Notes under the pieces: model-generated | The model's database searches: none | The model's input: only the letters and a program-made list of their open reading frames with translations | Told to the model about the DNA's origin: nothing | In this document: positions 159 to 57,300 of the stretch, piece after piece | Position numbering within the stretch: the stretch's first letter is position 1 | Layout: every line of letters starts with the position of its first letter | Assembly (NCBI GenBank): GCA_963836075.1 | Contig: CAWIIB010000009.1 | Span: forward strand, 1,760,001-1,824,000 | Length of the DNA: 64,000 bases | Source: an uncultured Acidobacteriota bacterium | GTDB taxonomy: Bacteria; Acidobacteriota; JAQAZP01 | Reading direction: 5' to 3' | Program-made: the position numbers and the translations under genes

Positions 159-2627
159 ATGAAACGCATCCCATTCATCGTCGTCATGATCCTGTTTCTG
201 TTGCCCCTGTCCGGTTGGGCACTGGACACCGACACCAGGGTGGTCAGCCCGGTCCAATCGTGGAGTGAAGCGGACCTGGCCACCTTCCATGACGGGTGGA
301 TCTACGTGAAGTTCGTCGAGGGATCCGATGTGCTGCTGCGGGACGGGCGGTTCAGCGACGAGAGCGGTCTCCGGCTTCAGACGGTGAACGGCCTGCTCCA
401 GGCCAGCAGCGCCAGCGATGTCCGGCCCACCTTCAAAGGCGACCGCGACCGGTTCCGCCGGCTGAAAGCGTTTGGCGAGGCGAAGTCTGGCGTCACCGGC
501 CCGGATCTCTCCCTCTGGTTCACTCTGCAGGTCCCGGGCGGCAAGGCCGCCCTGGCCCACACGCTCAACGCGCTCAACGCCGACCCGGCGGTGGAGATCG
601 CCCACCCGGCGCCGCAGGTGGAACTGGCAACGGTCCGGCCGGACCACCCGGCCAAAGCCGCGGCGCCCGCGCCGGGCGGCACCCCCGATTTCACCGGCGA
701 GCAGCACTATCTCTACGACCCGCCGGTGGGGCTCAATGCCCCGGCGGCCTGGTCGATTCCCGGGGGCAAGGGCGCGGGGATGAAGTTCATCGACGTGGAA
801 CTGGCCTGGGTGGAAGACCACGAGGATTTCACGGCGGACAACCACTTTTACCTCGGCGGTGCCCCGGAAGATCCGGGGTACAACGACCACGGCACCGCGG
901 TACTGGGCGAGGTGGTGGGCACACACAACAGCTATGGTGTGGACGGCTTTGCCGCCGACGTCCAGTTCGGCATGGTGGCCATCGACATCAACCAGTATCC
1001 CGATACGGCGCAGTACTTCCAGGAGGCGGTGGACAACCTCGATGCCGGCGACGTCTGGCTCATCGAGTTGCAGATGTACCCCTCGGGCCGCGACGCCACC
1101 CCCATGGAATACGTGCAGGTGAACTACGACGTGATATGGACCGGTGTCTTCTCCCGCGGCGTGGTCTGCGTGGAGGCCGGGGCCAACGGCAGCCAGGACC
1201 TGGATTCCGCTGTCTGGGGCGGGATCTTCGACCGCACGGTACGTGATTCGGGCGCGATCATGGTCGGCGCCGGCACCCCCACCGGACGGGTGGCTGAGTC
1301 GTTCACCAACTACGGCAGCCGGATGGATGTCCACGCCTGGGGATCTCAAATTTACACCACCGGATACGGGGACGCTTACAACGGCGGATCACTGCAGACC
1401 GAATACACCGCAAGCTTTGGCGGCACCTCCGGTGCCTCGCCGATGATCGTCGGCTCCTCGCTCTGCCTCCAGGGTATCGCCAGGGCCAACCTCCTGCGGG
1501 TGCTCGAGCCATTGGAGCTGCGGGCACTGCTCCACGATACCGGCATCGAGCACCTCGACCCGTCGCGGGAGATCGGCCCGCGGCCCGATCTCAGCGCAGC
1601 GGCGGCGATGGTGCTCAGCCTCGGCACACCGGTGGTGATCTGCGGCCCCGGACCAGGGATCGGCAACCCGCCGACGGTGCGACTCTTCCCGCCGGAGCAG
1701 GACGCCGGGATGTTGAGCGAGTTCCCGGCCTACGGCGCTTCCGGCTACGGGGTCAATGTGGACTGCGGAACGGTGGGCGGACTATCGGGCACGATCATTA
1801 CCGGTCCCGGCCCGGGGGACATCTACGGCCCCCATGTCCGCGGATTCACCGGCGACGGCACGCCGTTGCCCAGCCTCAGTTTCCTGGCCTACGGCACGCT
1901 GAAATTCGGGGTCAACGTGACCCTCGGCGACCTTGACGGAGACGGTGCCGCCGAGATCGTCACCGGTGCAGGCCCCGGTGCGGTCTTCGGCCCCCATGTC
2001 CGCGCCTTCAGCTACAACGGGTCGTCGGTCACCCCGGTGCCCGGAGTGAGCTATTTCGCTTACGGCACCAACCAGTGGGGGGTCAACGTGGGCTGCGGGG
2101 ACATCGACGGGGACGGCAGTGACGAGATCGTCACCGGCGCCGGGCCGGGCGCCATCTTCGGCCCCCACATTCGCGGTTGGAACGTGGACGGCGGTCCGGT
2201 GGCCACCATCCCGGCGGTGAGCTTCTTTGCTTACGGCACCAACAGGATGGGGGCCAACGTGGCCTGCGGCGACGTGGATGGTGACGGGATCGACGAGATT
2301 CTCACCGCCCCCGGTCCCTCCGGCGTTTTCGGGGCACACGTCCGCGGGTGGAACTTTGACGGGGGCACCGTGGCGGCCATCCCGGGGATCAACTTCTTTG
2401 CCTGGGACTATCCCGCGGTGCGGTTCGGTGCGCGGGTCTCTTCGGGGATCGACTACAACGGGGACGGTGGGGAAGACATGCTGGTCTCCCCGGGCCCCGA
2501 TCCGGAGGCTCCCGCGCAGCTCAAGGTCTTCGGCTACGACGGTTCCACCACATCGCTGCTGTTCTCGCTCAATGCCTTCGATACCGGGATCACCCACGGG
2601 ATCAATGCCGCGGGTGGAATGATCTAG
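159..2627 (+). CDS. Secreted S8 (subtilisin-like) serine peptidase with C-terminal FG-GAP-like tail A
   Basis: Signal peptide; catalytic motifs FIDVE, DHGTAVLG, EAGAN, GGTSGASP; RBS AGAGGA upstream; tail repeats from about 1632. Confidence 0.9.
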   Translation: MKRIPFIVVMILFLLPLSGWALDTDTRVVSPVQSWSEADLATFHDGWIYVKFVEGSDVLLRDGRFSDESGLRLQTVNGLLQASSASDVRPTFKGDRDRFRRLKAFGEAKSGVTGPDLSLWFTLQVPGGKAALAHTLNALNADPAVEIAHPAPQVELATVRPDHPAKAAAPAPGGTPDFTGEQHYLYDPPVGLNAPAAWSIPGGKGAGMKFIDVELAWVEDHEDFTADNHFYLGGAPEDPGYNDHGTAVLGEVVGTHNSYGVDGFAADVQFGMVAIDINQYPDTAQYFQEAVDNLDAGDVWLIELQMYPSGRDATPMEYVQVNYDVIWTGVFSRGVVCVEAGANGSQDLDSAVWGGIFDRTVRDSGAIMVGAGTPTGRVAESFTNYGSRMDVHAWGSQIYTTGYGDAYNGGSLQTEYTASFGGTSGASPMIVGSSLCLQGIARANLLRVLEPLELRALLHDTGIEHLDPSREIGPRPDLSAAAAMVLSLGTPVVICGPGPGIGNPPTVRLFPPEQDAGMLSEFPAYGASGYGVNVDCGTVGGLSGTIITGPGPGDIYGPHVRGFTGDGTPLPSLSFLAYGTLKFGVNVTLGDLDGDGAAEIVTGAGPGAVFGPHVRAFSYNGSSVTPVPGVSYFAYGTNQWGVNVGCGDIDGDGSDEIVTGAGPGAIFGPHIRGWNVDGGPVATIPAVSFFAYGTNRMGANVACGDVDGDGIDEILTAPGPSGVFGAHVRGWNFDGGTVAAIPGINFFAWDYPAVRFGARVSSGIDYNGDGGEDMLVSPGPDPEAPAQLKVFGYDGSTTSLLFSLNAFDTGITHGINAAGGMI
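1632..2627 (+). repeat. Tail A module; other copies at 6242-7243, 20093-21106, 22484-23486, 25885-26886, 54069-55073
   Basis: Six repeats with consensus EIVTGAGPGAVFGPHVRGWNYDG...FFAYGTLKYGVNVACGDIDGDG. Confidence 0.92.
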
Positions 2628-2634
2628 CGCCGGG

Positions 2635-5600
2635 CTAGCCGAAGAGGTCGAAGTCGCCGCCGAGGACGCGGTCGATGCGGCCGGTGCGCCAGCCGTTCAC
2701 CCCGTCACGGACCAGCGGTGACGGTTGTTCACGGTAGCGGCGGACCACCGTGGCGTCGGACGGTTGCGCTTCGCCGAGGGCATCACCGGCCTGCTTGACC
2801 CAGTCGGCCAGGTTGTCCCCGGCCGGCTCGTCCGGTTGGGCGGCCACCCGGACCCGGGCCTTGTCGCGGTGGAAGCCCTTGCCGTCCTGGCCCTCCTCCG
2901 GGGTCTCGAAGACGTGCAGTCCGTGCTCCGGGGCGAGGAAACGGTGGGCGCCGTATCCCGATACCGCGGCCAGCAGGCGGTACGGTTCATCACCGTCGCC
3001 CGATTCTTCCAGCACCCTGAGTTCCATCCGGCGCACCCGGGCCCACTCCTTGTACATCGTGGCGATCCGTCGGGCGAAGCGGTTGTTGCCGCCGGCGGTG
3101 GGCGTCGTGTCGATGGCCGACTCCACCAGCAGAAAGGCGTCCCGCGGCTCGCTGTTGCGCACCGTCTCGCAGGCCGCGTCGAGGAGGAATAGCCGCTGGG
3201 CCAGGCGCTGGACCAGCTGGCGCGGCACCCGCTCGCGGATCCGCTCCCCGTCACCGGTGAGCCGTTGGAACAGCGAGCGGGCGGTGCCGAACCCGGCCTC
3301 GATCCTGTCGAGGTATTCCACCTCGCCGAGGATCGAGAAGCGGTAGGGTGTGGACCAGAAGTCCTCCTGGCCGGTGAGGTCCAGCGCCGCCTGCTTGGTG
3401 TCACGGAATTCGGCCGACTCCACCGCCGTCCTGATCCGCTCGAAATGGGTGGCCAGCAGCTCCACCTCGGCTGCCGTGCCCCGCGGGTCGAGCACCAGTT
3501 TGCCCAGGTCCCGGACATCCTCCTCACCGGTCATGGCCGGCTCAGGTTGGCCGGGTTCCTCTTCCGGGATGTCGGGAGCGTCCGGATCGACGAACTCCAC
3601 CTCCAGCCCCTCGGCACCCCGGCGGAGAAAGAGGAACTGGTCCCCCGAGGGTGCCTCGTGCCCCACGATGGCCGAGGCCAGCGGGGTGAGCAGGTAGCGC
3701 TCCACGGCCCGTTTCAGCGGCCGGGCGCCCAGCTCGGTGGTGAATCCCTTCTCCAGCAGAAACTCCAGGGCCGCCTCGTCCCAGACCACGACCCAGGAGC
3801 GGTTGCGCAGGCCGCGCCGCTGGAAGGCCTCCTCCAGTTCCTTGTTCAGGATGCGGCGGATCACCTCCCGGCCCAGGGGCCGGAAGATCACCACCCGGTC
3901 GAGGCGGTTGAGGAATTCCTTGCGGAAGGCCTTCTGCACCGCGTCCCGCACCTCCCCGGGGTTGAAGGGCGCCTTCTCGCCGGTGAAGCCGAGACCGCCG
4001 GCGCTGCTGATCGCCGCGCCGAGATTCGAGGTGAGGATGAACAGGGCGTGGCGGCAGTCGGTGGTCAGACCGCGCCAGTCGGTGAGCCGGCCGTCGTCGA
4101 AGACCTGGAGAAAGATATCCCAGACCCGGGGGTGGGCTTTTTCGAATTCGTCCAGCAGCACCACCGAGAAGGGCTGTTTGCGGATCTGCTCGGCCAGAGA
4201 GAGCCCGCGCACCTCGGACTGCTCCTCGCCGAAGATCCGGCCCATGCTGTCCGCGGTCTGCAGCTCGCTCATGTCCAGCCGGATCATCCGTTCCGGAGAG
4301 CCGAAGAGGAACTCGGCCAGGGTCTTGGCGATCTCGGTCTTGCCGGTGCCGGTGGGCCCGGCAAAGAGGAAGACTCCGAAGGGCCGGGTGGGATCGTTCA
4401 GCCCGGCCTTGATCATCGTCACCCGGTCCACCAGGCAGTCCACCACTTCGGGTTGGCCCACCACCCGTGAGGTGAACAGCTCGCGAAGACCGGTTATGTC
4501 CAGGGCCTGCCGCTCGTCCAGCAGGCTGGACGGCAGGCCGCTGGTCCGGGCCAGGGTTTCGATCAGGTCGTCGAGGGTCAGCGGCGTGTCGCAGGTGCCT
4601 CCCGGGCCGGCCACCCGGTGGCGGGTCTGCTCCAGCAGGTCCATCAGGCTCCCCGGAGCAGACCGGTGGGCCAGGTACTGGCGAGAGAGGAGCCAGGCCT
4701 CGCGGATGGTCTCCTCACTGAGCAGCGGTTGGCCCGAGCTGGTGGCCAGGCCGGCCGCCCACCGGCCGGCCAGCTGCTGCGCTTCCTCGGCCTGCATCGG
4801 CTCCAGGCGGAGGGCGTCGAAGGCGTCGGCACAGCGGTGGTGGGTCTGCAGCAGCTGTTCAAAGGCCCGGGTGGTCACCTCGCCCAGCACGGTGAACCGG
4901 CTGTTGGCGATCTGGGGCAGGATCACGTCGAGGACGCAGACCGGGCTGGCTGAGTGCTTGCCGGTGTAGGCCAGCATCTGGAAGGCGGGGACATACCACA
5001 GGATGCGGCGGCCGGTCAGCCGGTCGGTGAGCTGGCGCAGCCGTTCCTCCAGCTGGCCGATGTAGACCTGGCCGGCGAGGATGTCCGAGTGGTCCGCCTC
5101 GAAAATCACCCACCCCCGGGCCTGGAGCCGCTGGGCCAGGGTGCGTACCACGGTGGTCTTGCCGGTGCCGGCCTCGCCCACCAGCAGCATGGAACGGGGG
5201 GGCGTGCTCAGCACATTGGCCTCCAGCCGGTCCAACGCCTTCTCCAGCTCAGGTGTGCGTACCAGGCCCTTCGCCGGGGTGTCGCTCCAGACCCGGCCCA
5301 TGCCCTCCAGGAAGCTGATATCCACCGCTGTCCGCTCCATCTCCCGCAGCTCGGCAAGGAGCGGGTCGCCCAGCGAGCGGTCCAGCCGCTGGAGCAGTTC
5401 CACCAGCAGTTCCTTCTTCTCTTCTTCCAGCGGTCTGGTCAGCGAACCGAAGGTCAGTTTCTCACCTTCGGCCACCCTGGCGCGGGCCAGGTCCTCGAAA
5501 AAGGCGAAGGCCTGTGGATTCTGCCAGCTCTCCTCCATGGCGAGCAGGAAGGGGCCCACCAGCGGTTCGTCGGACGGCGTGTGGGCGCGCAGCATTTCCA

Positions 5601-6081
5601 GGCCGAAGAAGCGGGGCCAGGGGGCGATGTGGTTGAGCCTGGTGCGCACGTAGTCGTTCAGCTGCCCCCCGTCCGGCCTGCGGGCCAGCGATTCCAGGGC
5701 CATGCAGGAGAGCAGCTGGTTGTCGCCAAAGGCGAAATCGCGAACGTCGGTGATGGTGAAGGCCGAACTGAGCAGGTGGGCCACCGCCAGCTCGAACTCG
5801 TCGGTTCCCCGCAGGTCGGCCGGGTGGGCCGTGGACTGGTAGAAGCCTTCGATCTCCTGGGCAATGGTGTAGAGCTGGATCCGCAGGGCCACGGCGTCGC
5901 CGCGCTGGGGCGTGGGCGACGGCGGCTCCGGCTGCCCCTGCTTTCCCTCCAGGTCGGCGGGCAGATACGGTGTTTCCTGCACACTCCGCCGTTGCCGCGC
6001 TCTTTTGGCCAGGCGGTCGTTGACCAGGAACACGATGACCATGAACAGGATGCCGAGGCAGAACGCGCCGTAAAATTCCAT
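2635..6081 (-). CDS. Clp/Hsp100-type AAA+ ATPase with N-terminal TM helix and C-terminal release factor 2-like (PCRF) region
   Basis: Walker A GEAGTGKT and GPTGTGKT; D2 motifs VVLLDEFEKAH, DDGRLTD, EFLNRLD, GARPLKR; C-terminus resembles RF2 by eye (MYKEWAR, EHGLH, VRRY..P..LVRD...G..DRVLGGDFD). Confidence 0.85.
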   Translation of the reverse strand: MEFYGAFCLGILFMVIVFLVNDRLAKRARQRRSVQETPYLPADLEGKQGQPEPPSPTPQRGDAVALRIQLYTIAQEIEGFYQSTAHPADLRGTDEFELAVAHLLSSAFTITDVRDFAFGDNQLLSCMALESLARRPDGGQLNDYVRTRLNHIAPWPRFFGLEMLRAHTPSDEPLVGPFLLAMEESWQNPQAFAFFEDLARARVAEGEKLTFGSLTRPLEEEKKELLVELLQRLDRSLGDPLLAELREMERTAVDISFLEGMGRVWSDTPAKGLVRTPELEKALDRLEANVLSTPPRSMLLVGEAGTGKTTVVRTLAQRLQARGWVIFEADHSDILAGQVYIGQLEERLRQLTDRLTGRRILWYVPAFQMLAYTGKHSASPVCVLDVILPQIANSRFTVLGEVTTRAFEQLLQTHHRCADAFDALRLEPMQAEEAQQLAGRWAAGLATSSGQPLLSEETIREAWLLSRQYLAHRSAPGSLMDLLEQTRHRVAGPGGTCDTPLTLDDLIETLARTSGLPSSLLDERQALDITGLRELFTSRVVGQPEVVDCLVDRVTMIKAGLNDPTRPFGVFLFAGPTGTGKTEIAKTLAEFLFGSPERMIRLDMSELQTADSMGRIFGEEQSEVRGLSLAEQIRKQPFSVVLLDEFEKAHPRVWDIFLQVFDDGRLTDWRGLTTDCRHALFILTSNLGAAISSAGGLGFTGEKAPFNPGEVRDAVQKAFRKEFLNRLDRVVIFRPLGREVIRRILNKELEEAFQRRGLRNRSWVVVWDEAALEFLLEKGFTTELGARPLKRAVERYLLTPLASAIVGHEAPSGDQFLFLRRGAEGLEVEFVDPDAPDIPEEEPGQPEPAMTGEEDVRDLGKLVLDPRGTAAEVELLATHFERIRTAVESAEFRDTKQAALDLTGQEDFWSTPYRFSILGEVEYLDRIEAGFGTARSLFQRLTGDGERIRERVPRQLVQRLAQRLFLLDAACETVRNSEPRDAFLLVESAIDTTPTAGGNNRFARRIATMYKEWARVRRMELRVLEESGDGDEPYRLLAAVSGYGAHRFLAPEHGLHVFETPEEGQDGKGFHRDKARVRVAAQPDEPAGDNLADWVKQAGDALGEAQPSDATVVRRYREQPSPLVRDGVNGWRTGRIDRVLGGDFDLFG

Positions 6082-6241
6082 AACTGAAGGATCTCCTACC
6101 GCATCCTAAGCTTTCACTGTGAGGGAAATCAAGGAAGGCTGGTGGCAGGCCCGGTCATGTCCTGTTGCTCCTGAGCGATATCAGGGAGCATAGCGACAGG
6201 AGCGCAGGAGCAACAGGACATGACCGGGCGATATCGGACTC

Positions 6242-8917
6242 TCAGTCTCCGGTGCGGAAGAACTGTCCGCCGGCCACCCGTCCGCCGTGGGTCTGCCCGC
6301 TGATCGCGGAGAAATAAGCGGAGTAGATGATCTGCCCCGTGGCGGAGAGGCTGAAGTAACCCACGTTGCAACCGGTGCCCGGGTCCGGGCCCGGGGCCAC
6401 GATAAACTCGTCCGCACCGTCGCCGTCCAGGTCGGTGCAGGCCACCACGGCGCCGAAGTCGTTGCCGAGGGCGAAGAAGTTGACCTCGGACATGGGGTTC
6501 ACGGCAGCGCCGTCGTAGTTGAACCCGCGGATATGGGCGCCGAAGATCTCACCCGGCCCCGGTCCGGTGATGATCTCCGCCATCCCGTCGCCGTCGATGT
6601 CGCCGCAGGCCACGTTGACCCCGTATTTCAGCGTGCCGTAGGCGAAGAAACTCACTGCCGGGTTGGCAGAGGCCGGCGGGGCGCCGTCGTAGTCCCACCC
6701 GCGCACGTGGGGGCCGAAAACGGCGCCCGGTCCCGCGCCGGTGACGATCTCGTCGAACCCGTCACCATCGATGTCGCCGCAGGCCACGTTGACACCCCAC
6801 TTGAGCGTTCCGTAGGCGAAGTAGCTGGCCCCCGGCAGGGGGATCACCGGAGACGCACCGTCGTAATCCCATCCGCGCACGTGGGGACCGAAGACGGCGC
6901 CCGGTCCCGCGCCGGTGACGATCTCGTCAAAGCCGTCCCCGTCCAGGTCGCCGGCGGTCACATTGACCCCGTACTTGTTGGTGCCGTAGGCGAGGAAGGA
7001 GACCCCGGACAGCGGTGTGCCGTCCAGCTCAAAGGCCCGCACGTGGGGGCCGAACACCGCCCCCGGGCCCGGCCCGGTGAGGATCTCGTCGATGCCGTCC
7101 CCGTCCAGGTCGCCGGCGCCCGGGTTGGCGCCGTAGCGGTCAACCCCGTAGGGCACGATCTCTTCGCCCAACTGGTCGGTGTTGCGTTCAAAGGTCCGCA
7201 CCGCGCAGCGGTTTGTCCCGGCAGGGCCGGGGGCGACCACCGCCCCGCCAGTGCCTCTGAGCTTGTAGAGCAGCCAGAGGTCCGGGTCGAGAATCACTCG
7301 CGTGGGCTGCGGGAGCACGGCGATGGCATAGGTCTCGCTGGCCTGGTGCATTCTGACAGTCTCACGCTGCGTGCCCTCCGGCGTGACGATGGCCAGTTCC
7401 AGCGGCGTGTCGAACAGCGGGGTCTGCGCATTGACCTCCTGCACCTGGTCGACGGTCAGGGAGAGCACGCCCCCGGCCCAGCTCCACTCGTAGCGAAATT
7501 CGGGGTAACCGGCCAGGTAGACCCACTGCTGGAAGAAGGTCTCCAGGTCGAGACCCGAGATATCCTCGGCCGCGGCGATAAAGTCCTCGGTGGTGGCGGT
7601 GGAATAGGCGTGGCGAGTGGCGTACTCGTGGAAGATATCGGCGAACACCTCGTCCCCGGTCATCCGGCGCAGCATGTGCAGCACCCAGGAGCCCTTGTAG
7701 TAGACGGTGAGCCCAAACCAGTAGTCGGGGTCATAGAGCGGGTAGCGGCCCCAGGATTCTTCGTGGCTGAAATACTGCCGGCGGCGGTTCTCCATCCAGC
7801 CCAGGAAGCTGTCGCGGCCGTAGTGGTGTTCGTCGAACAGGGCGTCGAAGTAGGTGGCGAACCCCTCGTTGAGCCAGATGTTCTCCCAGCCGTGGCAACC
7901 AACCAGGTTGCCCCACCAGTGGTGGGCCAGCTCGTGGGCCACCACCCACTCCCAGTCCCGGGAGCCGGTGACCCACTGGGATTCCATGGTGACCATGGTC
8001 TGGTGTTCCATGGTGGACCCGGCGGCGGCCATGGCCTGGCCGAAGGTGGGATAGGGGTAGGGGTAGTAGTTGTCGGAGAAGAAGTCGATCATCTCCGGCA
8101 GGTTCTCCCAGTCGTAGACCGCGTCCTCCATCCGGTCGGGGTAGACGAAGTGTTTGAGCGGCACGCCGCCGGCAGTGGTCTGGGTGTAGTTGTCGTAGTC
8201 CGAGACGGCGAGCATGATCAGGTAGGTGGCGATGGAGTAGTCGTGAAAGTAGTTCCAGGTCATGGTGCCGTCGCCGTTGTCCACCGTGCTCAGCAGGTCG
8301 CCGTTGGAGGCCACCTTCATCGACTGCGGGGCGGTGATGTGCCCGCGGTACCAGTCGGCCCGGTCCTCGGGCAGGTCGCGGCAGGGATACCAGTAGCGGG
8401 ACCCTTCCGGCTCGGTGATCGTCCAGCAAACGCCCCCATTCTGGTCGTCGAAGTGCAGTCCGGTCACCGGTGTTCCGTGGTAGCTGATGGCGAACGACCG
8501 CTCCTCGTCGAGGCCCATGGGCGTGGCCGGCTGAATAATCAACGCCGCGTCGTTGTGATGCCAGGACACCGGGATGGCCCCGCTCTCCACCACGTCCAGA
8601 ACCGTCATCTGCACCAGATCGAGGGTAAAGCCGGTGCACCCCGCTTCCAGGCTGCGCACGCCCACGGTGCAGACGGCGCTGATATATTCCGCGTCGAAGT
8701 CGAGGGTGATGTCGATTTCGTAGGAGACCACATCGATGTTGTCGCTGGAAGAGCTCTCCCTGGTTTCGTGGTTGCGGTGTTCCCAGGCGGGTGCGGGCTG
8801 TGGACCCTTGCCGGCATCGAGGATTTCGTCAGGGATCCTCGCCTCCAGTGGGGCTGAGGGAAGAAGGCCGAGAACGAGGACAAGAAGAAGGACTGCTGCA
8901 CCGCTGCGATTGCGCAT
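6242..8917 (-). CDS. Secreted M1 family zinc aminopeptidase with tail A
   Basis: Signal peptide; HELAHHWWGN...WLNEGFATY (HEXXH-X18-E), STMEH, YYKG; tail repeats in 6242-7243. Confidence 0.92.
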   Translation of the reverse strand: MRNRSGAAVLLLVLVLGLLPSAPLEARIPDEILDAGKGPQPAPAWEHRNHETRESSSSDNIDVVSYEIDITLDFDAEYISAVCTVGVRSLEAGCTGFTLDLVQMTVLDVVESGAIPVSWHHNDAALIIQPATPMGLDEERSFAISYHGTPVTGLHFDDQNGGVCWTITEPEGSRYWYPCRDLPEDRADWYRGHITAPQSMKVASNGDLLSTVDNGDGTMTWNYFHDYSIATYLIMLAVSDYDNYTQTTAGGVPLKHFVYPDRMEDAVYDWENLPEMIDFFSDNYYPYPYPTFGQAMAAAGSTMEHQTMVTMESQWVTGSRDWEWVVAHELAHHWWGNLVGCHGWENIWLNEGFATYFDALFDEHHYGRDSFLGWMENRRRQYFSHEESWGRYPLYDPDYWFGLTVYYKGSWVLHMLRRMTGDEVFADIFHEYATRHAYSTATTEDFIAAAEDISGLDLETFFQQWVYLAGYPEFRYEWSWAGGVLSLTVDQVQEVNAQTPLFDTPLELAIVTPEGTQRETVRMHQASETYAIAVLPQPTRVILDPDLWLLYKLRGTGGAVVAPGPAGTNRCAVRTFERNTDQLGEEIVPYGVDRYGANPGAGDLDGDGIDEILTGPGPGAVFGPHVRAFELDGTPLSGVSFLAYGTNKYGVNVTAGDLDGDGFDEIVTGAGPGAVFGPHVRGWDYDGASPVIPLPGASYFAYGTLKWGVNVACGDIDGDGFDEIVTGAGPGAVFGPHVRGWDYDGAPPASANPAVSFFAYGTLKYGVNVACGDIDGDGMAEIITGPGPGEIFGAHIRGFNYDGAAVNPMSEVNFFALGNDFGAVVACTDLDGDGADEFIVAPGPDPGTGCNVGYFSLSATGQIIYSAYFSAISGQTHGGRVAGGQFFRTGD

Positions 8918-8996
8918 GATCTATCTCCTGGATGTGACGACCTCTGAGTTCCACATCCAGGAGTTTATCACGCGATGGATGCCGGTTCTCTCTTTC

Positions 8997-9605
8997 CTAT
9001 TCGTAGAACATCCAGCTGGCGTATTCGCCGGTGCGGTCCCACTCCTCCCAGCCGTTCTTGTAGTAGGCGATCACGTCCTTGATCTGCTGGGCCTGAAGAA
9101 AGCCGACGTGGACAAAGAGGGTGTGCCCCTTGGGCGAGTATAAGCGGTGCTCGGGCACGGTCTTGTACCAGAGTTCCGCCGCCACCACGCGCTCCTTGGG
9201 CAGGTTGAACCGGGCGGCCCACTCCTTGGCCGTGTCCACGGTGGCATGGTCGTTGTAGGCGTTGCTCTTGCCGGTCATCACGGTGAGGAAGACGATCTCG
9301 TCCCCCAGTTCATGCTCCACGCTCTGGGTCACCGGTGTCTGCTGGGCGCAGGCCGGGCACCAGGTGGCGGCATACTCGCACCAGACAAAGCGCCCCTCGA
9401 AGTCGGTCATCGAGACCCCGCGTCCCAGGGCGTTGGGCCGCGGTTTCTGCGTCCGTCCGGTGGAGTAGGAGTCGTCCCCCATGTTGCCCACCACCTTGTC
9501 CAGGTCCTTCATCTTGCCCCAGGAGCGTTTCACCGGCCCGTCGTCGCCGCAGCCGCACAGGGCGACCATCGTGATGAGAATAGGGAGCAGGCGTGCCTGT
9601 TTCAT
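8997..9605 (-). CDS. TlpA/thioredoxin-like lipoprotein
   Basis: Lipobox-like ALCGC; WCPAC redox motif. Confidence 0.8.
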   Translation of the reverse strand: MKQARLLPILITMVALCGCGDDGPVKRSWGKMKDLDKVVGNMGDDSYSTGRTQKPRPNALGRGVSMTDFEGRFVWCEYAATWCPACAQQTPVTQSVEHELGDEIVFLTVMTGKSNAYNDHATVDTAKEWAARFNLPKERVVAAELWYKTVPEHRLYSPKGHTLFVHVGFLQAQQIKDVIAYYKNGWEEWDRTGEYASWMFYE

Positions 9606-9707
9606 GGTGCGCGTACCTCAACATTGATGATGGTGCTGATGGTGTTGTTGGGCCAAGAATGACGCGAAGCGGGCGGGGAGTCAAGCGGGACTGTACCGTG
9701 CCCGGGT

Positions 9708-10181
9708 TTATCCCCAGGACCAGATGTTGTAGACCGCTTCCTTGGGCAGCTTCTCGCCGGAGATGCGCATGCTGACCACCACCAGGGCGCGGTGGTGCGC
9801 TTCGTGGGCGATGAGGTAGGCGAGGAAGGTGGATGGCGGACCGTTCCAGCCTCTGACCAGCCCGGTGCGCTCACTGGCCTCGAGAAACGCGCCCATCATC
9901 TTGGCCGACCCGGTGAGCGCGGCGATGAGCAGGGCCCGGTTGGGCTGTGCTCCCCGCTCAAAGGTCTGCAGCTTGCCCATGAACTCCGGCCCCCGTTTGT
10001 TCAGGTGGAAGACGCGCACGTTGTGCATGTGGGCCAGCTGGGCGGCCACGGTCCTGGTCCGCGGCGAGTAGCGGTGGGCCAGCGACTTTTCCTGAAGGTG
10101 GTCCAGCAGGTAGAGATTGGCATCGGTGTTTCGCTGCCAGGCGGCAGCCATGCTCGATTCCCTGTCAGACACGTTGATCAC
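9708..10181 (-). CDS. DinB family protein
   Basis: TVAAQLAHMHN and LIAHEAHHR histidine motifs; about 150 aa. Confidence 0.8.
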   Translation of the reverse strand: MINVSDRESSMAAAWQRNTDANLYLLDHLQEKSLAHRYSPRTRTVAAQLAHMHNVRVFHLNKRGPEFMGKLQTFERGAQPNRALLIAALTGSAKMMGAFLEASERTGLVRGWNGPPSTFLAYLIAHEAHHRALVVVSMRISGEKLPKEAVYNIWSWG

Positions 10182-10960: not shown

Positions 10961-11047
10961 CGCGATTCGCTCCGGGTGGAAAGTGTGCCGGAGAGGGGCA
11001 CGGCGTTTGATCGATAGTATGCCGGGAGCATGCCGCATGCAAGAAGA

Positions 11048-22444: not shown

Positions 22445-22483
22445 GGGTTCCTTGTCCTGTTATTTCTCGTAAAGCAACCGTTC

Positions 22484-36126: not shown

Positions 36127-36169
36127 TCATTTCACTCCGCCGCTTCTACGGATGCTGAGAGGACCAACC

Positions 36170-37632: not shown

Positions 37633-37995
37633 TAATCCTGGGCCAGTTCACCCATTTGTTGCGCCGGATGCATGTCATCCTGAGACGATTGACGCATGCG
37701 TCGGTAAGTGCAACATCATCAAACATTACGGAATTTACAGGAGGGAGGTCCGTCTGAATATGTCCGGTAAAATATTCGTTGCATATAATACCTATAGTGT
37801 ATATATTCAATTGCGCTGCACTGGATGACAAGGAATCTGCAATACAGGTTGACAGACTGTTGTATGCCTTGGCCTCTTTGCGTCCTTCCAACTAAAACCT
37901 GATCGAACTTCAAGGCCCTCGGTATCTGTTTTTCAATGAGTATTGCCGTGGAGCTGAACAACTGCGACACACAACAAACAAGAGGAGTCAGGCCA

Positions 37996-50700: not shown

Positions 50701-51088
50701 GGTCAACGAGTCGCCGTACATCAGCGAGGCGGTGGTGGTGGGGGCGGGCAAGGACTTTGTCAGCGCGTTGATCTACCCCGATTTCGCCACTCTCGAGCTC
50801 TGGCTGAAAAAGCGACACGTGCCGGTGGAGCAGGCGCTCACCGATCCGGCGGTACACGAGTTGTATGCTTCCGAGATCGCCCGGATCAACCCGATGATCG
50901 ATTACAAGTTCCAGCAGGTGCGGCGGGCCACCGTGGCCCAGCGGATGCCCTCTCTGGACAACGGCGAGCTGACGCCTTCCGGGAAGCTGGTGCGCAAGAC
51001 GATCATGAACAATTTCAAGGCCCAGATCGACGCCCTGTTCGAGGCCGATGTGCCGCCTGAGGTGATCGAGATCCCAAAGACGGGCTGA
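47708..51088 (+). CDS. Fusion: ketopantoate reductase-like region + DUF2889-like domain + long-chain acyl-CoA synthetase
   Basis: AMP-binding motifs FTSGTTGAPKG, EGWGLIE, RTGDLG; central RVGGHAGCSHIKEL; N-terminal PPGALG, LILPNG, HVTSSL. Confidence 0.75.
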   Translation: MLKAGEVGVHPPGALGVAFFVHTNAECFIGRGGDGITQPLKDAGCFQLDDHGQIRTIALRNKIFSNLLEAEALDRLPELLFVCCNPDQLILFTAELTRFLEILAERGRLKSVEDVRREVPILLILPNGILSEKTMTDYAEQLHESILMQRLPGVTEEMRLALLDRVVRGVSLQAGGRRGSGAETIYIHERKGMVVFAGGGEEERERVVELFSTHDYPFKHAEGVPGTRVEFDKAMISIVLNVGGLIHTVNPDGSLIDLRMGDLCKDPDKQDFVQKITHAVFATGQAAGAYPPEATYDDIWATHRATILAHQGHVTSSLKTFRDALKFGLSGVSLFSNEEWILTPLIAYAARAGLQEEERLFKDLKRRVQESMAKAIRHREQSSAGGAGNQRTSKMKLIGQRNFNIELYEDESDYLLMVGTMLDAHHLIKLELTLFLPDEQITRSKLQMSRVPFPVCCEIEPLADRLVGLRIQRGVVNEIGRRVGGHAGCSHIKELAMNLVYFAASNLVGRQVNIDGKSPDERFELTKELLNDSCLAYGQTTAWGLDERIGIKKVGEEHGNPIPLGDYEPSFGVLLRDRTERWGDKVYLRYCSDEQPQSLSWNEFTGRVHKIARHYIDLGIRKGDRIGMISENRPEMYMAELAAMIIGAVTVPIFSDHTPQQVTYVLNRAKPRFAIVSGKHQLDKIEIGKHPWVDKFFAMDFDSDCRKWGALDFAELLGEGGASEEELTSRVDGVRPDDLCVIMFTSGTTGAPKGVRLGHRHLISQQKAMSLIWDVNENDVFLNYLPWHHSFGGLFERFMSLYTGAELCLDEGRGKDIDRLIRNWDAFEPTVFFSIPRVHDMLVARSSESGDAEEIIWGGRLRLAFTAGAPLPGHVEAAYREHGIPILEGWGLIEAAPCVTVCTTDRAWRRGCVGFPLPGVKIRINHNQEILAKGPNVMDGYLHDEEATAHMLTEDGWLRTGDLGEITPDGLRLLGRKDGTFKLTTGEKVHPPRIETVLVNESPYISEAVVVGAGKDFVSALIYPDFATLELWLKKRHVPVEQALTDPAVHELYASEIARINPMIDYKFQQVRRATVAQRMPSLDNGELTPSGKLVRKTIMNNFKAQIDALFEADVPPEVIEIPKTG

Positions 51089-51467
51089 CCAACTTGGTCT
51101 CACCGGCCTGACCCTGGAAGCAAGGCCGTTTCACTCCCTTAGAGTAGCGTTGATACTGGCCGGACTGATGATCCATACTGGCTGAAGTGTCCTTCGCAGG
51201 TCTCAGTGCTGACAACCCGGTTTTCCGCCCGGTGCCCAGCAGACTGCCGACTGCACCCTCTGATCTCCGGCCCCGATCGCGCTCTTCCTGGTCCGCATGG
51301 ACCAGGCCGCGACGAGCATTTACCGGCCCCGGCGGCCGGAGCGGACCGACCGGCACCTCGAGCTGTCCCAGCCGGGGTTCCGCGCCATGGTCACGGTGCC
51401 GGGGCACGAGGCCGAAGATGTTATAGTCAGACAGGAGACCTTACAGAACGAAACAGAGAGGGAGAAA

Positions 51468-53969
51468 ATGGAATCCGAAACAGGTGTCTGGTCCGGCTGG
51501 CAGGAAACACCCATATCCCAGGGCGAGATCGATATCAGTCTCGTCGAGGACCGGCTGGCGGAATTTCTGGGTCGCTACGGCGAGAAGAGCGTCGTCGGGC
51601 CGCGGCTGGCCGAGGTGCTGGGCCCGGGCGACGGCGAGGAGCGCCTGGCGCGGCTGATCGCGGCCTGCGGGTTCGAGGACCGGTCCGAGGCCTTTATCCG
51701 CACGGTTCTCGACCAGTTGAGCCGGACGTCGCCCCAATCCGTGGCGGACATCCGCCTGGGGGCCATCGTCCTGCCGCAGGAGATCCTGCTGCTCTTCCTC
51801 GAGGAGCTGCTGCCGGGCTCAGGTTTCGTCAACGTCCGCGAACTGGAGCACTATGAGGCTCTCTGCAACATCACGGTCCCCGATGAAGAGCGCGACCGCA
51901 TCCGCCGGGTGCTCCGCGAATACCCGGTGCGGCTGTCCCACCACACGCTGCGCCAGGTCCGGCTGTCCGAGGGAATCGGCTACCAGTACCTTCCCTTTGC
52001 CGACGAACTCTCGGAGGAGGGGCAGGTCCACACCTGGATTGGCCAGTTCCACCAGGGCGTGGTCGAGCAGATGTACGACAACCGGGTCATCATGGTGCTC
52101 CACATGAGCTGTCCGGTCTACTGCCGCTTCTGCTTCCGCAAGCACAAGGAGACTCGGGAACAGCTGCCGCCCACCATGGAGGACATCGACGCGGCGCTGG
52201 GCTACATCGCGGGCAACGACCACATCAGAGAGGTCGTGCTCACCGGCGGCGAGCCGCTGATGAACCGCAAGACGGTGGAGCAGTCGATCTACGGGCTGGC
52301 GCGCATCCCCCACATCGAGACCGTGCGCCTCGCCGCCCGCACCATCTCCTACCACCCCCAGATGCTGCGCCGCCGCAACGAGTTCTGGATGCGCTTTCTG
52401 ATCAAGGCGCGAGAGGACCTGGCGGTGGTCGGCAAGCACCTCGAGGTGGCCGGGCACTACATCCATCCGGACGAGGCGTCCATCGCCTCGCTCGAGGTCA
52501 TCGCCGAACTGGCACGAAACGGCATCCCGGTCTACGTCCAGACGCCCTTCCTCGCCGGCTGCAACGACGACGGCGAGGTCCTGGCCCGGCTCTATCACGA
52601 GCTGCGGCTGCGCGGGGCGGAGATGCACTACATCTTCTTCCCCTGCAGCGCGATCAAGGGGAACCGCCGCTACTGGAGCCCGATCGCGGCGGCGTTGCGC
52701 GCCGGCAACGAGTTGCGGGCCCTGCTCTCGGACCGGGCGATCCCTCACCTGACCACGGCGACCAGGATCGGCAAGATCGACTGGCTGACCAGCGGCTGGG
52801 CGGTGGAGCGCGACGAGGCGGACACCGCCTTCATCTGGATCCGGACACCCTACACCCGGCAGTACTTCTCCCAGTTCGTCGAGGCCGTGGAAGAGATCGA
52901 CGGTGTGCGCGAGAACGCGGACGGCATGCTCGAGGCGCGATTCATGGCCGATATCGGCGACGAGGCGCTCTTCGTCCGGCCCCGGGTCGAACTGCCGGAT
53001 GTCGACCAGGTGGACGACGAGGACCTGCCCTACGACGAGGAGCAGATCGCCGAGCTTTACGACTACCTGCCTGATATCGGACCCGATATCGTCTCCAGCG
53101 GCCTCGAGAAGCTCTGCCGCGTGCACCGCACCCGCGTCGAGCTGCGCGTGGATTGCGACGACGGGCAGCTCGGGCGGATCGTCGACTACGTGGCGGCCCA
53201 CCCGGCGATCACCGATGCCGTGCTGCGCACCGATACGCCCCTGCCGGACTCCCTGGACGAGATCGAACGCGCCGTCGCCGCCCTGCGAGCCGGCACCGAC
53301 GTGCGGTCGTTCCGGATGCGCAGCCGCATCTTTCACGAGGAGCCTTTGCTCTACGACGCCTCGGTGGTGGAGCGCTATGCGGCCCTGCAGAACCTCGACG
53401 TGGCCGACCCCGTGCGTTTCGAACTGGAGACGCTGGTGCTGAGCGCGGACCAGCTCGACGACAGCCACCGCCGGGTCGTGGAAAGCCTGCACCAGAACGG
53501 CGTGACCATCTATCTCAACAGCTGCCTGCTGCACAACGTCAACGACAGCGCCGCCGCGATGCGGGCGCTGTCGTCGAAGTGCCGCCGTTTCGGTTTCGAG
53601 TTCCACCACCTCTATGTCGCCGGCGCGCAGACCCAGCGTCGCTGGAACGCCGGACGGCCGGTGGACCTGGACACGATCATCGGCATCGCCACCGAGCTGC
53701 GCCGCACCGGCAGCGGCCGCGAACTCCCCCGCCTGATCGTCTCCACCGAACTGGGGGAGGTGGATTTCGGCCCGGGTTGCCACATCCGCCCCGGTCCCGC
53801 GCGCGGCACGGCGGAGATCACGCTGTGGCCCTACACCTTGGACTACTTCCGGGCCATGGACCCCGCCTTCGAGTGGCCGGAAGGGGTCCGCGAGGACGGG
53901 GGGTACCCGGTGGTCACCACGCCCGGGCTGCGCTGCAGGCACAGCTGGGGACCGCCGCGGCGCCCGTAA
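51468..53969 (+). CDS. KamA family (aminomutase-like) radical SAM protein with a degenerate second domain
   Basis: CPVYCRFCFRK, LTGGEPL, HYIHPDE, IGKID; RBS GAGAGGGAG and TGTTATAGT upstream of ATG 51468. Confidence 0.85.
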   Translation: MESETGVWSGWQETPISQGEIDISLVEDRLAEFLGRYGEKSVVGPRLAEVLGPGDGEERLARLIAACGFEDRSEAFIRTVLDQLSRTSPQSVADIRLGAIVLPQEILLLFLEELLPGSGFVNVRELEHYEALCNITVPDEERDRIRRVLREYPVRLSHHTLRQVRLSEGIGYQYLPFADELSEEGQVHTWIGQFHQGVVEQMYDNRVIMVLHMSCPVYCRFCFRKHKETREQLPPTMEDIDAALGYIAGNDHIREVVLTGGEPLMNRKTVEQSIYGLARIPHIETVRLAARTISYHPQMLRRRNEFWMRFLIKAREDLAVVGKHLEVAGHYIHPDEASIASLEVIAELARNGIPVYVQTPFLAGCNDDGEVLARLYHELRLRGAEMHYIFFPCSAIKGNRRYWSPIAAALRAGNELRALLSDRAIPHLTTATRIGKIDWLTSGWAVERDEADTAFIWIRTPYTRQYFSQFVEAVEEIDGVRENADGMLEARFMADIGDEALFVRPRVELPDVDQVDDEDLPYDEEQIAELYDYLPDIGPDIVSSGLEKLCRVHRTRVELRVDCDDGQLGRIVDYVAAHPAITDAVLRTDTPLPDSLDEIERAVAALRAGTDVRSFRMRSRIFHEEPLLYDASVVERYAALQNLDVADPVRFELETLVLSADQLDDSHRRVVESLHQNGVTIYLNSCLLHNVNDSAAAMRALSSKCRRFGFEFHHLYVAGAQTQRRWNAGRPVDLDTIIGIATELRRTGSGRELPRLIVSTELGEVDFGPGCHIRPGPARGTAEITLWPYTLDYFRAMDPAFEWPEGVREDGGYPVVTTPGLRCRHSWGPPRRP

Positions 53970-54068: not shown

Positions 54069-57000
54069 TCAGAACCTTCCTGCCGCCACCACGGTGCCGT
54101 GGGTCAGGTTATGGTCCCCAAAGGCATCCAGCGAGAACCACTCGGTTACCTGGCCCCCATCATAACGATAAACTTTGACCGGCGTGGCCACTGAAGGATC
54201 AGGGCCCGCACCAACCACCATTTCATCGCTCCCGTCGCCGTCCAGATCGGCCCCGGCAAACACATTTGCGCCGTAGCGGGACTCGCCCGGATCCCAGGCA
54301 AAGAAGTTGATCGATGAGATGGCGGTCAGGGATGCACCATCATAGTTCCAGCCACGGACGTGGGCCCCGAACACAGCCCCGGGTCCGGCACCGGTGATGA
54401 TTTCGTCCAGTCCGTCGCTATCAATATCGCCGCAGGTCACGTTCACGCCAAACTTGTTCGTTCCGTAAGCGAGGAAGCTCACGCCCGATATGGGCGTGAC
54501 GGCGACGTTGTCATAGTTCCAGGCACGGACGTGCGGACCGTAAACCGCACCAGGACCGGCGCCGGTGACGATCTCGTCATACCCGTCACCGTCGATATCA
54601 CCGGTGGTCACGTTCACCCCCCACTTGGGAGTGCCGTAGGCGAAGAAGCTCACATCGGACATTGGGCTCACCGAACCACTACCGTCATAGTTCCAACCTC
54701 GGACATGGGGCCCGAACACGGCTCCGGGACCGGCCCCGGTGATGACTTCGTCAAACCCGTCACCGTCGATGTCGCCGCCGGTCACGTTCACGCCAAACTT
54801 GTTGGTTCCGTAGGCCAGGAAGCTGAGGCCAGGCAGCGGGGTTCCGTCAACCCGGAAGCCCCGGACGTGCGGCCCGTACACCGCCCCCGGGCCCGCCCCG
54901 GTGAGGATCTCGTCGAAATCGGTGCTGGTCAGGTGGGCGCAACTCACGTTGACCCCATACTGGGGAACGCCGTATGCGTCGAACTCGTTGATGAAAGCCC
55001 CATCGGGTTCCGGACGAAACAGGCGGACCAGCGGCGGATTGGTCGGGCCGGGTCCCGGCCCCACCGCCAGTTTCGTCAAACCGGTCGCGTTGAGCAGCAC
55101 CGACACGGTGTCGCTCCCCGAGTTTGCCGTAGCCAGGTCGGGCAGACCGTTGTGGTCCAGATCGCCAACGGCCACCCAGAGGGGATCCACACCGGTGCCA
55201 TAGTGCATGTCCGGCTGAAAGGTGCCGTCCCCGTTACCCCGGAAGATATGGAGTTGACCTTGGCTTTCCATGACGAGGATCAGATCCAGCGCTCCATCCT
55301 GGTCCAGATCCCGGGTGACCAGGGAAATAGGCCCAACCCAGGGGGCCACCTGCAGATACTCGGCAGGGAGGAAGGTGCCGTCACCGTATCCCCGAAGGAT
55401 CGCCACACGTGAATCGTTCGCATGAGCCACGGCCAGATCCAGGTGGCCGTCCTGGTCCAGATCTCCCAGGGCCATGGCGACGGGACGCGATCCCACACCG
55501 AAATGCGATTCGACCTGGAAGGTGCCGTCACCACGGCCCAACCAGACGGTGACATCGCCGCTCATCAGGTTCGTCGCGGCCAGGTCGGGCACACCGTCGC
55601 CGTTCAGGTCTCCCACAGCCACGAAATTGGGCGTGTCGCCGGCGTCATAGTCCACGGCGCTCTCGAAAGAACCGTCACCACGGCCCAGGAGGACGGAGAT
55701 GTTGTCACCCCAGTTGTTCGCCGTCACCAGGTCCAGGTTGGTGTCCCCGTCCAGGTCTGCCATGGCCACGGCACTGGCGCCCCAGTCCACCTCGTGGTTC
55801 ACCGGTGGTCCGAAGCTGCCGTCGCCGTTACCGGGCAGGACGGAAACACTTTTCTGCGGCGCGCTGGTCACCGCCAGGTCGAGATCACCGTCCCGGTCCA
55901 CATCCCCCAGGGCCAGTCCCCGGGGCAGCTCAAAGGTGACGAACTGCGCGGCGTCCCTGAACACGCCGTTCCCAAGGCCCATAAGGATGGAGACCGTGTC
56001 CCCCATGGGGTTTGTCACGGCCAGATCGGGGTGACCGTCACCGTCCAGATCGCCGACGGCCACTGATCCGGGGGACACACCGGCCCCGTACTCCGGTGTG
56101 GTTTGAAACGTTCCGTCGCCGAAGCCCGCCAGGACGCAGATACCGCCACCGGTCATGGCCAGATCAGGGTGGCCGTTTCCGTCGATGTCCTCGGCCACGA
56201 TCCCCGTGGCACCTACCGAGGCCGGGAACTGCACCGCGGGCTGGAATGTGCCGTCCCCGTTGCCGGTCAGAACAGCGACATCGTCACTCCACCTGTTCGC
56301 CACGGCCAGATCCCTGGCGCCATCCCCGTTCAGTTCGGCCACGATGACGGAATTTGATCCCTCTCCGGCGGCGTAATTTACCGCGGCCTGGAATGTGCCG
56401 TCCCCGTATCCGAGTTGGATGGAAACCTGGCCGCCCGACAGAAGGGTCACCGCCAGGTCGGTGTGGCCGTCACCGTCGAGATCGTCAAGGGCGATCCCGT
56501 TGGGCTGTACACCGACACCGTGATCTACTGCGCCCTGAAAAGACCCGTCCCCGTTGCCGAAGAGGATCGAGACGGAATCGCTGCTGAAGTTGACCACCGC
56601 CAGATCCAGGAAGCCGTCTTCGTCGAGATCGTCCGCGGCAATGGCAGAGGGCCAATCTCCCACCGCGTAATTCACAGCGCCCTGAAAGGTGCCATCACCA
56701 TTTCCCAGAAGGACGGCGACATCGTCGCTGGCTTTGTTTGCCGCGGCCAGGTCGGGATGACCGTCCGAATCGAAATCAGCCACGGCGATGTACTCCGGGG
56801 TTTCACCGGTGGGATAGGAAACCGCTTCCCGGAACGTACCGTCGCCATTGCCCGGCAGGATCGAAATGTAGTCCCCCCAGGAATTGGCCACCACCAGGTC
56901 GGGGGCACCGTCGCCATCCAGGTCCTCGGCGGTGACAAATACGGGGCGTTCCCCCGCGCCGTAGTGAACGGCCTCCCGGAAGCTCCATCCACCGTCCCCC

Positions 57001-57300
57001 AGCCTGACTGCAACGGTATCCGCATCCCGGTTGGCCGAGGCCAGGTCCGGACGACCGTCACCATTCAGGTCGGCAACGACCACCGAATACGTCGCCTCGC
57101 CAACCGAGGTACTCGAACTGCCCTTCGAACAGAATGGCCGCTTCAGCCGCCTGGGGCATGGCAACATGGGAGAAGATCGTGAAGAGAATCATAGCCGTGA
57201 GAACGGCCAGGATATTGAAGGGGGGAGTGCGGCGTTCGGCGGAAAAGGCAAGCAACCGGGCAAAGCAGACGACGACCGTGAGTTCTGCTCGTGTATCCAT
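54069..57300 (-). CDS. Secreted FG-GAP/VCBS repeat protein with tail A; apparent +1 frameshift near 57108 separates the leader peptide
   Basis: About 13 DLDGDGxxDLAVAN...VSILLGxGDGTF repeats; leader in ORF 57058-57300; QFEYSVGEAT is restored by removing one C. Confidence 0.85.

Follow-up and report, generated by a model that had tools for sequence, protein, structure and literature searches.

A shared C-terminal propeller module on diverse exported proteins of an uncultured Acidobacteriota-labelled lineage as a candidate surface anchor

Why should a subtilase, an M1 aminopeptidase, a hydrolase-like protein and a protein built of VCBS-type repeats all end in the same 330 residues? The question is raised by a 64-kb stretch of DNA (~64% G+C; its full length is called the window below) on contig CAWIIB010000009.1 of an uncultured Acidobacteriota bacterium, in which exactly six open reading frames (ORFs; genes 1 to 6, Table 1) end in a shared C-terminal module of ~332 amino acids (aa) that we call tail A. 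A first-pass annotation had read this module as a tag for export, anchoring or scaffold docking. We find that tail A is an unnamed, widespread and fixed six-bladed propeller that is used as a C-terminal module. Based on its predicted fold and the proteins that carry it, we suggest, with a probability of about 0.45, that it is a multivalent, Ca-dependent, lectin-like module for retention or anchoring.

The C-terminal module and its predicted fold

A profile hidden Markov model (HMM) of the six tails, run against the six-frame translation of the window (stop-to-stop frames), gave six matches only, with E values of 1e-165 to 1e-181, and the generic FG-GAP repeats in the N-terminal part of gene 6 were not significant (E>1). 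Tail A is therefore a distinct entity and not just a run of FG-GAP repeats, although Pfam places repeats of the FG-GAP type at the C-terminal end of these six long ORFs and all six proteins lie above the gathering scores of PF01839 and PF13517. The tails can be aligned from end to end; they are 53-61% identical to the tail of gene 1, and the mean column identity is 70%. That six unrelated proteins share the same C-terminal module of ~330 aa, the starting point of the first-pass annotation, is real and far beyond chance.

Tail A consists of five FG-GAP-like units of ~57 aa each and a split sixth blade. The units follow the pattern [YW]GVNV..GD.DGDG.DEI.TGAGPGAVFGPHVRGW..DG, ~10 variable residues, S[FY].AYGT.K; a half unit, VTGPGPG..NP..VR.F..., stands before them and a short strand, HG..VAAGRF, after them. 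Each of the six window tails has three to five strict DxDGDG-type loops, and the C-terminal [VI]A[AG]GxF is exactly terminal in four of them and five residues from the end in a fifth, the remaining tail ending ...AAGGMI. This bears out the earlier description of inner repeats with DxDGDG loops between specialised first and last repeats, with (V/I)AxGxF at or near the C-terminus of most copies.

Structure prediction, which had been proposed as a check, gave a six-bladed propeller. The AlphaFold2 (AF2) model, made for the tail of gene 3 on an alignment of 58 tails, is all-beta (predicted local distance difference test, pLDDT, 92.6; predicted template modelling score, pTM, 0.93), and its strand order comprises five four-stranded blades and a sixth in which the last strand (328-330) joins the first three (2-4, 13-17, 25-30). 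Sharing of one blade by the N- and C-terminal strands is the usual 'velcro' closure of propellers. Tail A is thus predicted to be a closed six-bladed beta-propeller of the FG-GAP type and a member of the FG-GAP superfamily, with a blade count of six by both strands and repeats, not the seven of the integrin-alpha type. Because the ring would be closed by the terminal strand, the specialised first and last repeats, the fixed length and the terminal (V/I)AxGxF all find an explanation in the model, and the idea that the terminal motif is a separate signal falls away, since it is the closing strand of the propeller.

Within a protein, blades 1-4 have their loop motifs in common (GPGAVFGPHVRGW, AYGTxK), with pairwise identities of 52-69%, while blade 5 is an outlier (0.34-0.39 to the other blades) and blades 1, 5 and 6 are position-specific. 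The same blade is more alike across proteins (0.67-0.76, blades 1-3) than different blades are within one protein (0.52-0.69), and the six-blade unit is therefore an old one that moves in one piece. Between unrelated cargos, tails are 53-65% identical, and 52 columns are invariant among the 58 tails.

How widespread is this unit? A profile search of 1.84 billion representative proteins (50%-identity clusters) gave 15723 tail-A matches at E<=1e-3, 7449 at E<=1e-10 and 1838 at E<=1e-30, and word-indexed searches at E<=1e-20 found at least 3411 proteins of 591-2000 aa and at least 2859 of 181-590 aa. The source names of these relatives are 'hypothetical protein', fibronectin-binding autotransporter adhesin and predicted outer membrane repeat protein, agmatine/peptidylarginine deiminase being the sole name of a cargo type. 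Of the 244 best-scoring database proteins (P0007-P0250), 98 have tail A running to the very last residue, 229 have it ending no more than 6 aa before the C-terminus and all 244 no more than 30 aa before it, so that the claim of an always C-terminal position stands. Constancy of repeat number largely stands as well: the tail spans 315-345 aa in 238 of the 244, the departures including P0154, which has a long array of inner repeats in place of the six-blade unit. P0170 has an extra partial tail-A match upstream.

Relatives are encoded in 280 of the 364 stretches that were matched in a scan of genomes, and we kept the best 80 of these 280, which correspond to 71 loci. These 71 loci come from two metagenome-assembled genomes (MAGs) only, 38 from one labelled Acidobacteriota and 33 from one labelled 'uncultured bacterium'. 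A six-frame HMM search of the loci found 111 tail-bearing frames, at least one of them a duplicate from overlapping loci; the copies of tail A number about 100. Nearly all of the frames stop within a few codons after the tail, the longest extension being 47 aa. Dozens of copies per MAG on at least 31 classes of cargo, as well as at least 17 tail-A proteins among the matches listed on a single contig of 3,516,849 bases (together with P0001 and P0002), agree with the expectation of many copies per genome. Look-alikes of tail A in the ESM Atlas are short FG-GAP/VCBS clusters only, with Planctomycetota or Acidobacteriota as the commonest known phylum, and we take them as no more than a lead on the range of the family.

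No Pfam or NCBIfam model covers tail A beyond matches at the level of single repeats, and no PDB entry covers it, either by a 58-tail profile run on PDB sequences or by Foldseek on the PDB; a full-text literature search found no paper on the module. We therefore reject the possibility that tail A is an already characterised domain, a full-length match to which would have spoken against a lineage-specific tag. The profile reached only integrin alpha propellers in the PDB (best integrin alpha-V, E 5e-6). Among the Foldseek matches to the PDB, the best was a chain of UmbA4 with teichuronic acid (9oee_A, E 1.5e-7, TM-score relative to the query, TMq, 0.62, 16% identity), followed by the fungal N-acetylglucosamine lectins PVL, PAL and AAL-2 (TMq 0.44-0.52), integrin alpha (~0.5, up to 0.53) and six-bladed Kelch and designed propellers (0.55-0.58; Kelch 0.55-0.57). 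Identity to the lectins is 13-16%. The integrin alpha head and the PVL-type lectins share with tail A the FG-GAP/FG-GAP_3 repeats and the DxDGDG Ca loops; they differ in that these propellers, which are seven-bladed, are not terminal tags, whereas tail A is six-bladed.

The UmbA4 match suggests two ways in which a propeller of this kind might be used. Published work describes UmbA4 as having at its C-terminus a six-bladed beta-propeller lectin, whose pockets, located at or between blades, bind a cell-wall glycopolymer, and UmbA-type targeting lectins as having diversified into many families (PMC13274773). Like tail A, the Streptomyces UmbA lectins combine a C-terminal six-bladed propeller with Ca-type loops and an unrelated N-terminal domain; they differ in being diversified for different targets and part of one particle, whereas tail A is near-uniform and sits on dozens of enzymes per genome. 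One reading is therefore that tail A is a lectin or adhesin for an external substrate (foreign cell walls, detritus or prey) on which it would concentrate degradative enzymes in the manner of carbohydrate-binding modules or UmbA lectins, as UmbA4, by the same account, targets the cell-wall polymer of another bacterium; the degradative arsenal that carries the tail (peptidases, lipases, the arginine deiminase family and CotH) would suit this. However, the paralogues of tail A keep the same loops where the UmbA lectins are described as diversified, which points to a single constant ligand, and non-enzymatic repeat proteins carry the tail too. We consider targeting of external material unlikely, and favour the second way, anchoring to the producing cell itself.

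Cargo, leaders and a second tail

The 98 full-length tail-A ORFs of the loci and window fall into 31 unrelated cargo classes, the largest of which has 30 members with N-termini resembling beta-helix proteins seen elsewhere. In 29 database members, Pfam assigns the cargo to Peptidase_C1, S8, C25 with its propeptide, M28, PAD_porph, GDSL lipase, Beta_helix/NosD, CotH with LTD, Lcl_C, Invasin_D3/fn3, BNR/Sortilin, SBBP and further FG-GAP arrays. Peptidases, lipases, beta-helix proteins and repeat proteins predominate, rather than glycoside hydrolases, and we conclude that tail A is carried by typical exoenzymes.

Do the tails evolve with their cargo, or are they exchanged? On a FastTree phylogeny of the tails, the cargo class changes 43 times, compared with a minimum of 30 and with 58-68 for shuffled labels. 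By this measure the tails appear partly to travel with their cargo and partly to have been exchanged, and weak resolution of the tree may add noise. Tail A had been thought far more conserved than its cargo, which is true across unrelated cargos but not in five pairs of orthologues between window and MAGs, in which the cargo is 73-86% and the tail 69-85% identical; there is therefore no visibly stronger constraint on the tail than on the enzymes that carry it. Concerted evolution of the tails within a genome can be rejected, as orthologous tails (69-85% identical) are closer than paralogous ones (53-65%). The array of genes 3-5 (20093-28365) is syntenic with positions 2995-11008 of MAG locus L059, at 69-82% protein identity, and therefore predates the split of these species.

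These figures bear on the simplest alternative, that tail A has no common address function and is a stable Ca-binding domain spread by duplication, aiding folding, solubility or protease resistance. The equal rates of divergence of tail and cargo in orthologues and the partial agreement of the tail tree with cargo class are what it would lead us to expect. Yet the 31 classes need 13 changes above the minimum, so that tails were exchanged between cargos, and position-specific signatures of the blades, like the invariant residues of the loops, persist in thousands of proteins, which is more than stability of the fold needs. We regard this alternative as very improbable.

The cargo is exported in most cases, judging by N-terminal leaders. 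All six window proteins had been said to have one, and a clear hydrophobic leader is indeed in frame in five (gene 1 begins MKRIPF..., with a Kyte-Doolittle hydropathy of 3.27). The sixth, gene 6, has no leader in its own frame (best N-terminal hydrophobicity 1.07); its leader-like stretch lies in another frame (Table 1), which meets the body frame near 57100-57110. A frame break in gene 6, real or an assembly error, must be assumed, and a junction of the two frames would agree with the pattern of repeats in the first FG-GAP_3 unit. Thiolase_N and Thiolase_C are likewise found in overlapping ORFs of different frames (45618-46460 and 46396-46791, both +), and such split genes make assembly indels plausible. 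Two ORFs of the xanthine dehydrogenase family, 40409-42358 (-) and 42261-44162 (-), overlap by ~100 nucleotides (nt) and hold the hammerhead domain and then the molybdenum cofactor-binding domains; they may be another split gene. Leader-like N-termini occur, by a simple hydropathy rule, in 208 of the 244 best database proteins; among the 102 tail-A ORFs of the loci and window that are complete at the 5' end, 87 have one. Many of the 36 database proteins that lack one begin mid-domain and look truncated. A leaderless subfamily and some tail-only ORFs are weighed below.

Clustering of the ORFs without tail A yielded a second shared C-terminal module, tail B, of ~120 aa, which has a proline-rich stretch at its end and closes with DVTPAPYNQPPYPP...CTVTGxAP. 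It is present on 31 ORFs, two in the window and 29 in loci L004-L070, and its motif occurs in none of 107 tail-A ORFs; the two tails are mutually exclusive. AF2 predicts an eight-strand beta-sandwich (pLDDT 94.2) that, within the PDB, comes closest to RbmA, a biofilm matrix protein of Vibrio (TMq 0.67), and tail B has no Pfam or NCBIfam match. Tail B occurs in the same genomes as tail A; at E<=1e-10 the database holds 386 tail-B proteins, on contigs equal in length to those with tail A, and their cargo belongs to the same families (CotH with LTD, M28, S8, C1, beta-helix, GDSL and purple acid phosphatase-type domains). The existence of two interchangeable tails for a common pool of cargo strengthens the view of both as address or anchor modules. 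Directly upstream of the first tail-B ORF of the window, which starts mid-domain, lies a 185-aa Beta_helix ORF (17770-18327, +); the two may be one gene broken by a stop or a change of frame.

Retention, sorting or docking

A fixed, terminal module present in many copies on exported proteins behaves like shared anchoring or sorting domains. The tag proposed at the outset is therefore supported in part, namely in its terminal position, fixed length and copy number. We discuss its three suggested modes, export, anchoring and docking, by comparison with known systems.

Sorting by the type IX secretion system (T9SS) offers the closest parallel in cargo. The C-terminal domains (CTDs) recognised by this system are beta-sandwiches of about 80-100 aa, and its classic cargo includes C25 gingipain-type peptidases, PAD_porph, S8, C1 and M28. 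Like tail A, they form a shared C-terminal domain on many Sec-exported hydrolases, with an overlap in cargo that extends to C25, PAD_porph and S8, and like tails A and B they occur as two alternative classes in one genome (type A, TIGR04183; type B, TIGR04131). Tail A might accordingly be a sorting signal for a dedicated outer-membrane translocation or attachment machinery, with tail B as a second class of signal, and its strict C-terminal position, its fixed length, its dozens of substrates per genome, the C25 peptidases with their propeptide among its cargo and the mutually exclusive tails on the same cargo families would all be in keeping with this; leaderless members would also suit a tail that itself directs export. 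On the other hand, where a CTD is a small beta-sandwich, the propeller of tail A, with 330 aa, is three to four times as large as known CTD signals, and its terminal motif is explained structurally as the closing strand. NCBIfam gave no TIGR04183 or TIGR04131 match at E<=0.01 in the six tail-A and two tail-B proteins, no T9SS gene was found within the window by a general Pfam scan, and nothing translocon-like was present in that scan or recurred among the neighbours in the 71 loci and window. That the nearest folds are glycan-binding lectins also favours anchoring over an export signal, and we hold a sorting function to be improbable.

The search for neighbours consisted of all-against-all clustering of 545 non-tail ORFs from the 71 loci and the window. 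No translocon, attachment or scaffold gene recurs beside tail-A genes among these clustered ORFs, Pfam not having been run on all neighbours; the only recurrent groups are tail-B proteins, generic two-component regulators and sulfatase-family lipoproteins. This result also bears on a dockerin-like function, in which tail A would attach its cargo to a scaffold protein or surface lattice through protein-protein contacts. A dockerin is a module of ~70 aa with two EF-hand-like loops, and beta-propellers commonly bind peptides on one face. As in cellulosomes, a Ca-dependent, loop-rich terminal module is common to many secreted enzymes, and one database member, P0246, has an N-terminal Dockerin_1 in addition to tail A. 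Dockerins are, however, much smaller and EF-hand-like, and PF00404 matches neither tail A nor any other part of the six tail-A proteins. Moreover, no protein with repeated receptor modules lies near tail-A genes, nor does any scaffold-like neighbour recur, in the 71 loci and window, and tails A and B occur once per protein, on enzymes and not on scaffolds. Docking onto a protein scaffold thus seems quite improbable.

We favour as functional model, by analogy, anchoring of the SLH or CWB2 type. SLH domains and CWB2 triplets are non-covalent anchors that bind a cell-envelope glycopolymer and are common to tens of paralogous surface proteins. Like tail A, they are modules of a few hundred residues on paralogues with diverse enzymatic domains, as in the Cwp proteins of Clostridioides difficile; they differ in their unrelated folds and in belonging to Gram-positive envelopes, and neither has a Pfam match in the six tail-A proteins (E<=1e-3). 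An anchor of the lectin kind is favoured by the nearest folds, which are binders of glycans at surfaces. The same loops on four to five blades suggest a repeating ligand, the retention of these loops in all paralogues suggests one constant ligand, and a cargo that is not carbohydrate-active argues against the substrate-targeting role of a carbohydrate-binding module. To these can be added the predicted fold, the closure of the ring, the C-terminal position, the fixed length, the copy number, the exoenzyme cargo and the leader in most members, all of which come from the analysis itself.

We speculate that anchoring proceeds as follows. The protein would be exported by Sec, after which its tail A would fold with Ca2+, and passage of the outer membrane would use some general route. 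The near-identical loops of blades 1-4 would then bind a ligand of repeating structure that the cell itself produces, most probably a glycan of the envelope or matrix, so that dozens of hydrolases and adhesin-like proteins are kept on the surface or in the matrix instead of diffusing away. In integrin FG-GAP blades the Ca loops lie on one face; by analogy, the Ca loops of tail A may occupy one face of the propeller and the conserved GPGAVFGPH and AYGTxK loops the other, where aromatic and basic side chains could form a ring that would suit an acidic glycan.

A polysaccharide-type cluster stands between the tail-A and tail-B genes of the window (28874-37390 overall, with the glycan genes at 30.4-37.4 kb). 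It encodes a radical SAM/SPASM protein, three GT4 glycosyltransferases, an NAD-dependent epimerase/dehydratase and a 702-aa membrane protein resembling sulfatases and phosphoethanolamine transferases. Its presence among tail genes weakly supports a glycan anchor. The 702-aa protein ends ...IGYLQ, and sulfatase-family proteins with similar C-terminal motifs occur in seven loci.

Several points weigh against a lectin-like anchor. The lectin matches are modest, with a TMq of at most 0.62 and identities of 10-18%, and Kelch propellers score nearly as high. The assignment of loops to faces follows the topology of integrin and not the coordinates of the model. The tail evolves as fast as its cargo in orthologues and so gives no sign of constraint by a co-evolving partner. 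How a folded 330-aa propeller would cross the outer membrane is unexplained by the model, a Pfam scan found no secretion genes within the window, and the proximity of the glycan cluster may be a coincidence. A further difficulty is posed by a tail-A subfamily of ~503 aa, comprising 12 clusters (P0014, P0261, P0267, P0277, P0279, P0281, P0284, P0288, P0294, P0300, P0311 and P0332) that are annotated without a leader and all start at the same position. Its N-domain of 170 aa, with a weak Omp28 match below the Pfam threshold, starts at the annotated Met; one member is on the window's own replicon, and tblastn found none within the genome loci. The same replicon has four tail-only ORFs of 332-339 aa, which could be halves of indel-split genes, as with the split genes of the window. 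If real, the leaderless subfamily and the tail-only ORFs misfit a purely extracytoplasmic anchor.

On balance, analogy with known glycan-binding folds and anchors makes anchoring through glycan binding the most likely mechanism of tail A, at the odds stated at the outset. A wider proposal is that tails A and B serve as alternative address labels in a system for surface display or secretion, so far undescribed, of this uncultured, Acidobacteriota-labelled lineage, in which a whole six-bladed Ca-propeller would be the recognised or anchoring element for dozens of exoenzymes per cell; this we put forward as tentative and rather doubtful.

The tail genes of the window and what the module may mean

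The features of the window are collected in Table 1. The M1 aminopeptidase of gene 2 also matches TIGR02412 (E 8e-35, below cutoff), and the C45-like label of gene 3 comes from a single match, itself below threshold. The duplication in gene 5 is recognisable as a direct repeat of 300 nt whose copies are 94% identical and 594 nt apart.

Table 1. Tail-A and tail-B features of the window
Feature	Position	Strand	Evidence
Gene 1: leader + subtilase (Peptidase_S8) + tail A, 822 aa	159..2627	+	PF00082 E 1.5e-9
Gene 1 tail A	1635-2624	+	HMM E 6.9e-170, residues 519-848 of frame 81-2624
Gene 2: leader + M1 aminopeptidase with N-domain + tail A, 891 aa	6242..8917	-	PF01433 E 9.4e-32, PF17900
Gene 2 tail A, followed by 5 extra residues	6260-7243	-	HMM E 1.1e-164
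Tail-B ORF	18358-19785	+	ORF clustering, terminal motif
Gene 3: leader + C45-like domain + tail A, 753 aa	20093..22354	-	NF040521 (C45_proenzyme) E 4.6e-8, below cutoff
Gene 3 tail A	20096-21103	-	HMM E 1.2e-175
Gene 4: leader + alpha/beta-hydrolase-like region + tail A, 1043 aa	22484..25615	-	weak PAF-AH_p_II, Chlorophyllase, PETase, E 8e-5 to 2e-4
Gene 4 tail A	22487-23482	-	HMM E 2.2e-173
Gene 5: leader + tandemly duplicated ~198-aa domain + tail A, 826 aa	25885..28365	-	no Pfam cargo match
Gene 5 tail A	25888-26880	-	HMM E 1.7e-171
Tail-B ORF	37936-39579	+	ORF clustering, terminal motif
Gene 6: 14 FG-GAP_3 (VCBS-type) repeats + tail A, 1032 aa	54069..57167	-	PF13517 E 5.9e-117, 14 stretches
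Gene 6 tail A	54072-55073	-	HMM E 1.4e-180
Leader-like hydrophobic segment, out of frame, upstream of gene 6	57058..57339	-	stop-to-stop frames, DNA

Adjoining gene 1 is a ClpB/ClpA-like double AAA+ protein of 1148 aa with a long N-terminal extension (2635-6081, -), a pairing with the S8 tail-A gene that is kept in one MAG (L002, 3408-6851). Elsewhere the window encodes two unusually long fusions: one of 1126 aa joins DUF2889 to an AMP-binding enzyme (47708-51088, +), and the other, of 890 aa, is a KamA-family radical SAM aminomutase-like protein that bears large extensions (51297-53969, +).

Propeller lectins of the FG-GAP type and shared terminal anchoring domains are known already, and tail A is a variant of those kinds, in a family of thousands of database proteins whose names are only 'hypothetical' or generic FG-GAP. 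If it is an anchor or address, tail A would mark the surface-exposed degradative proteome of a widespread uncultured lineage, and an HMM of the tail would predict the localisation of dozens of enzymes per genome. The use of a whole propeller would then be a new structural solution beside the T9SS CTD, SLH, CWB2 and dockerin, as well as a ready-made scaffold for display. Finally, two alternative tails on the same families of cargo amount to a natural experiment on the exchange of tags.

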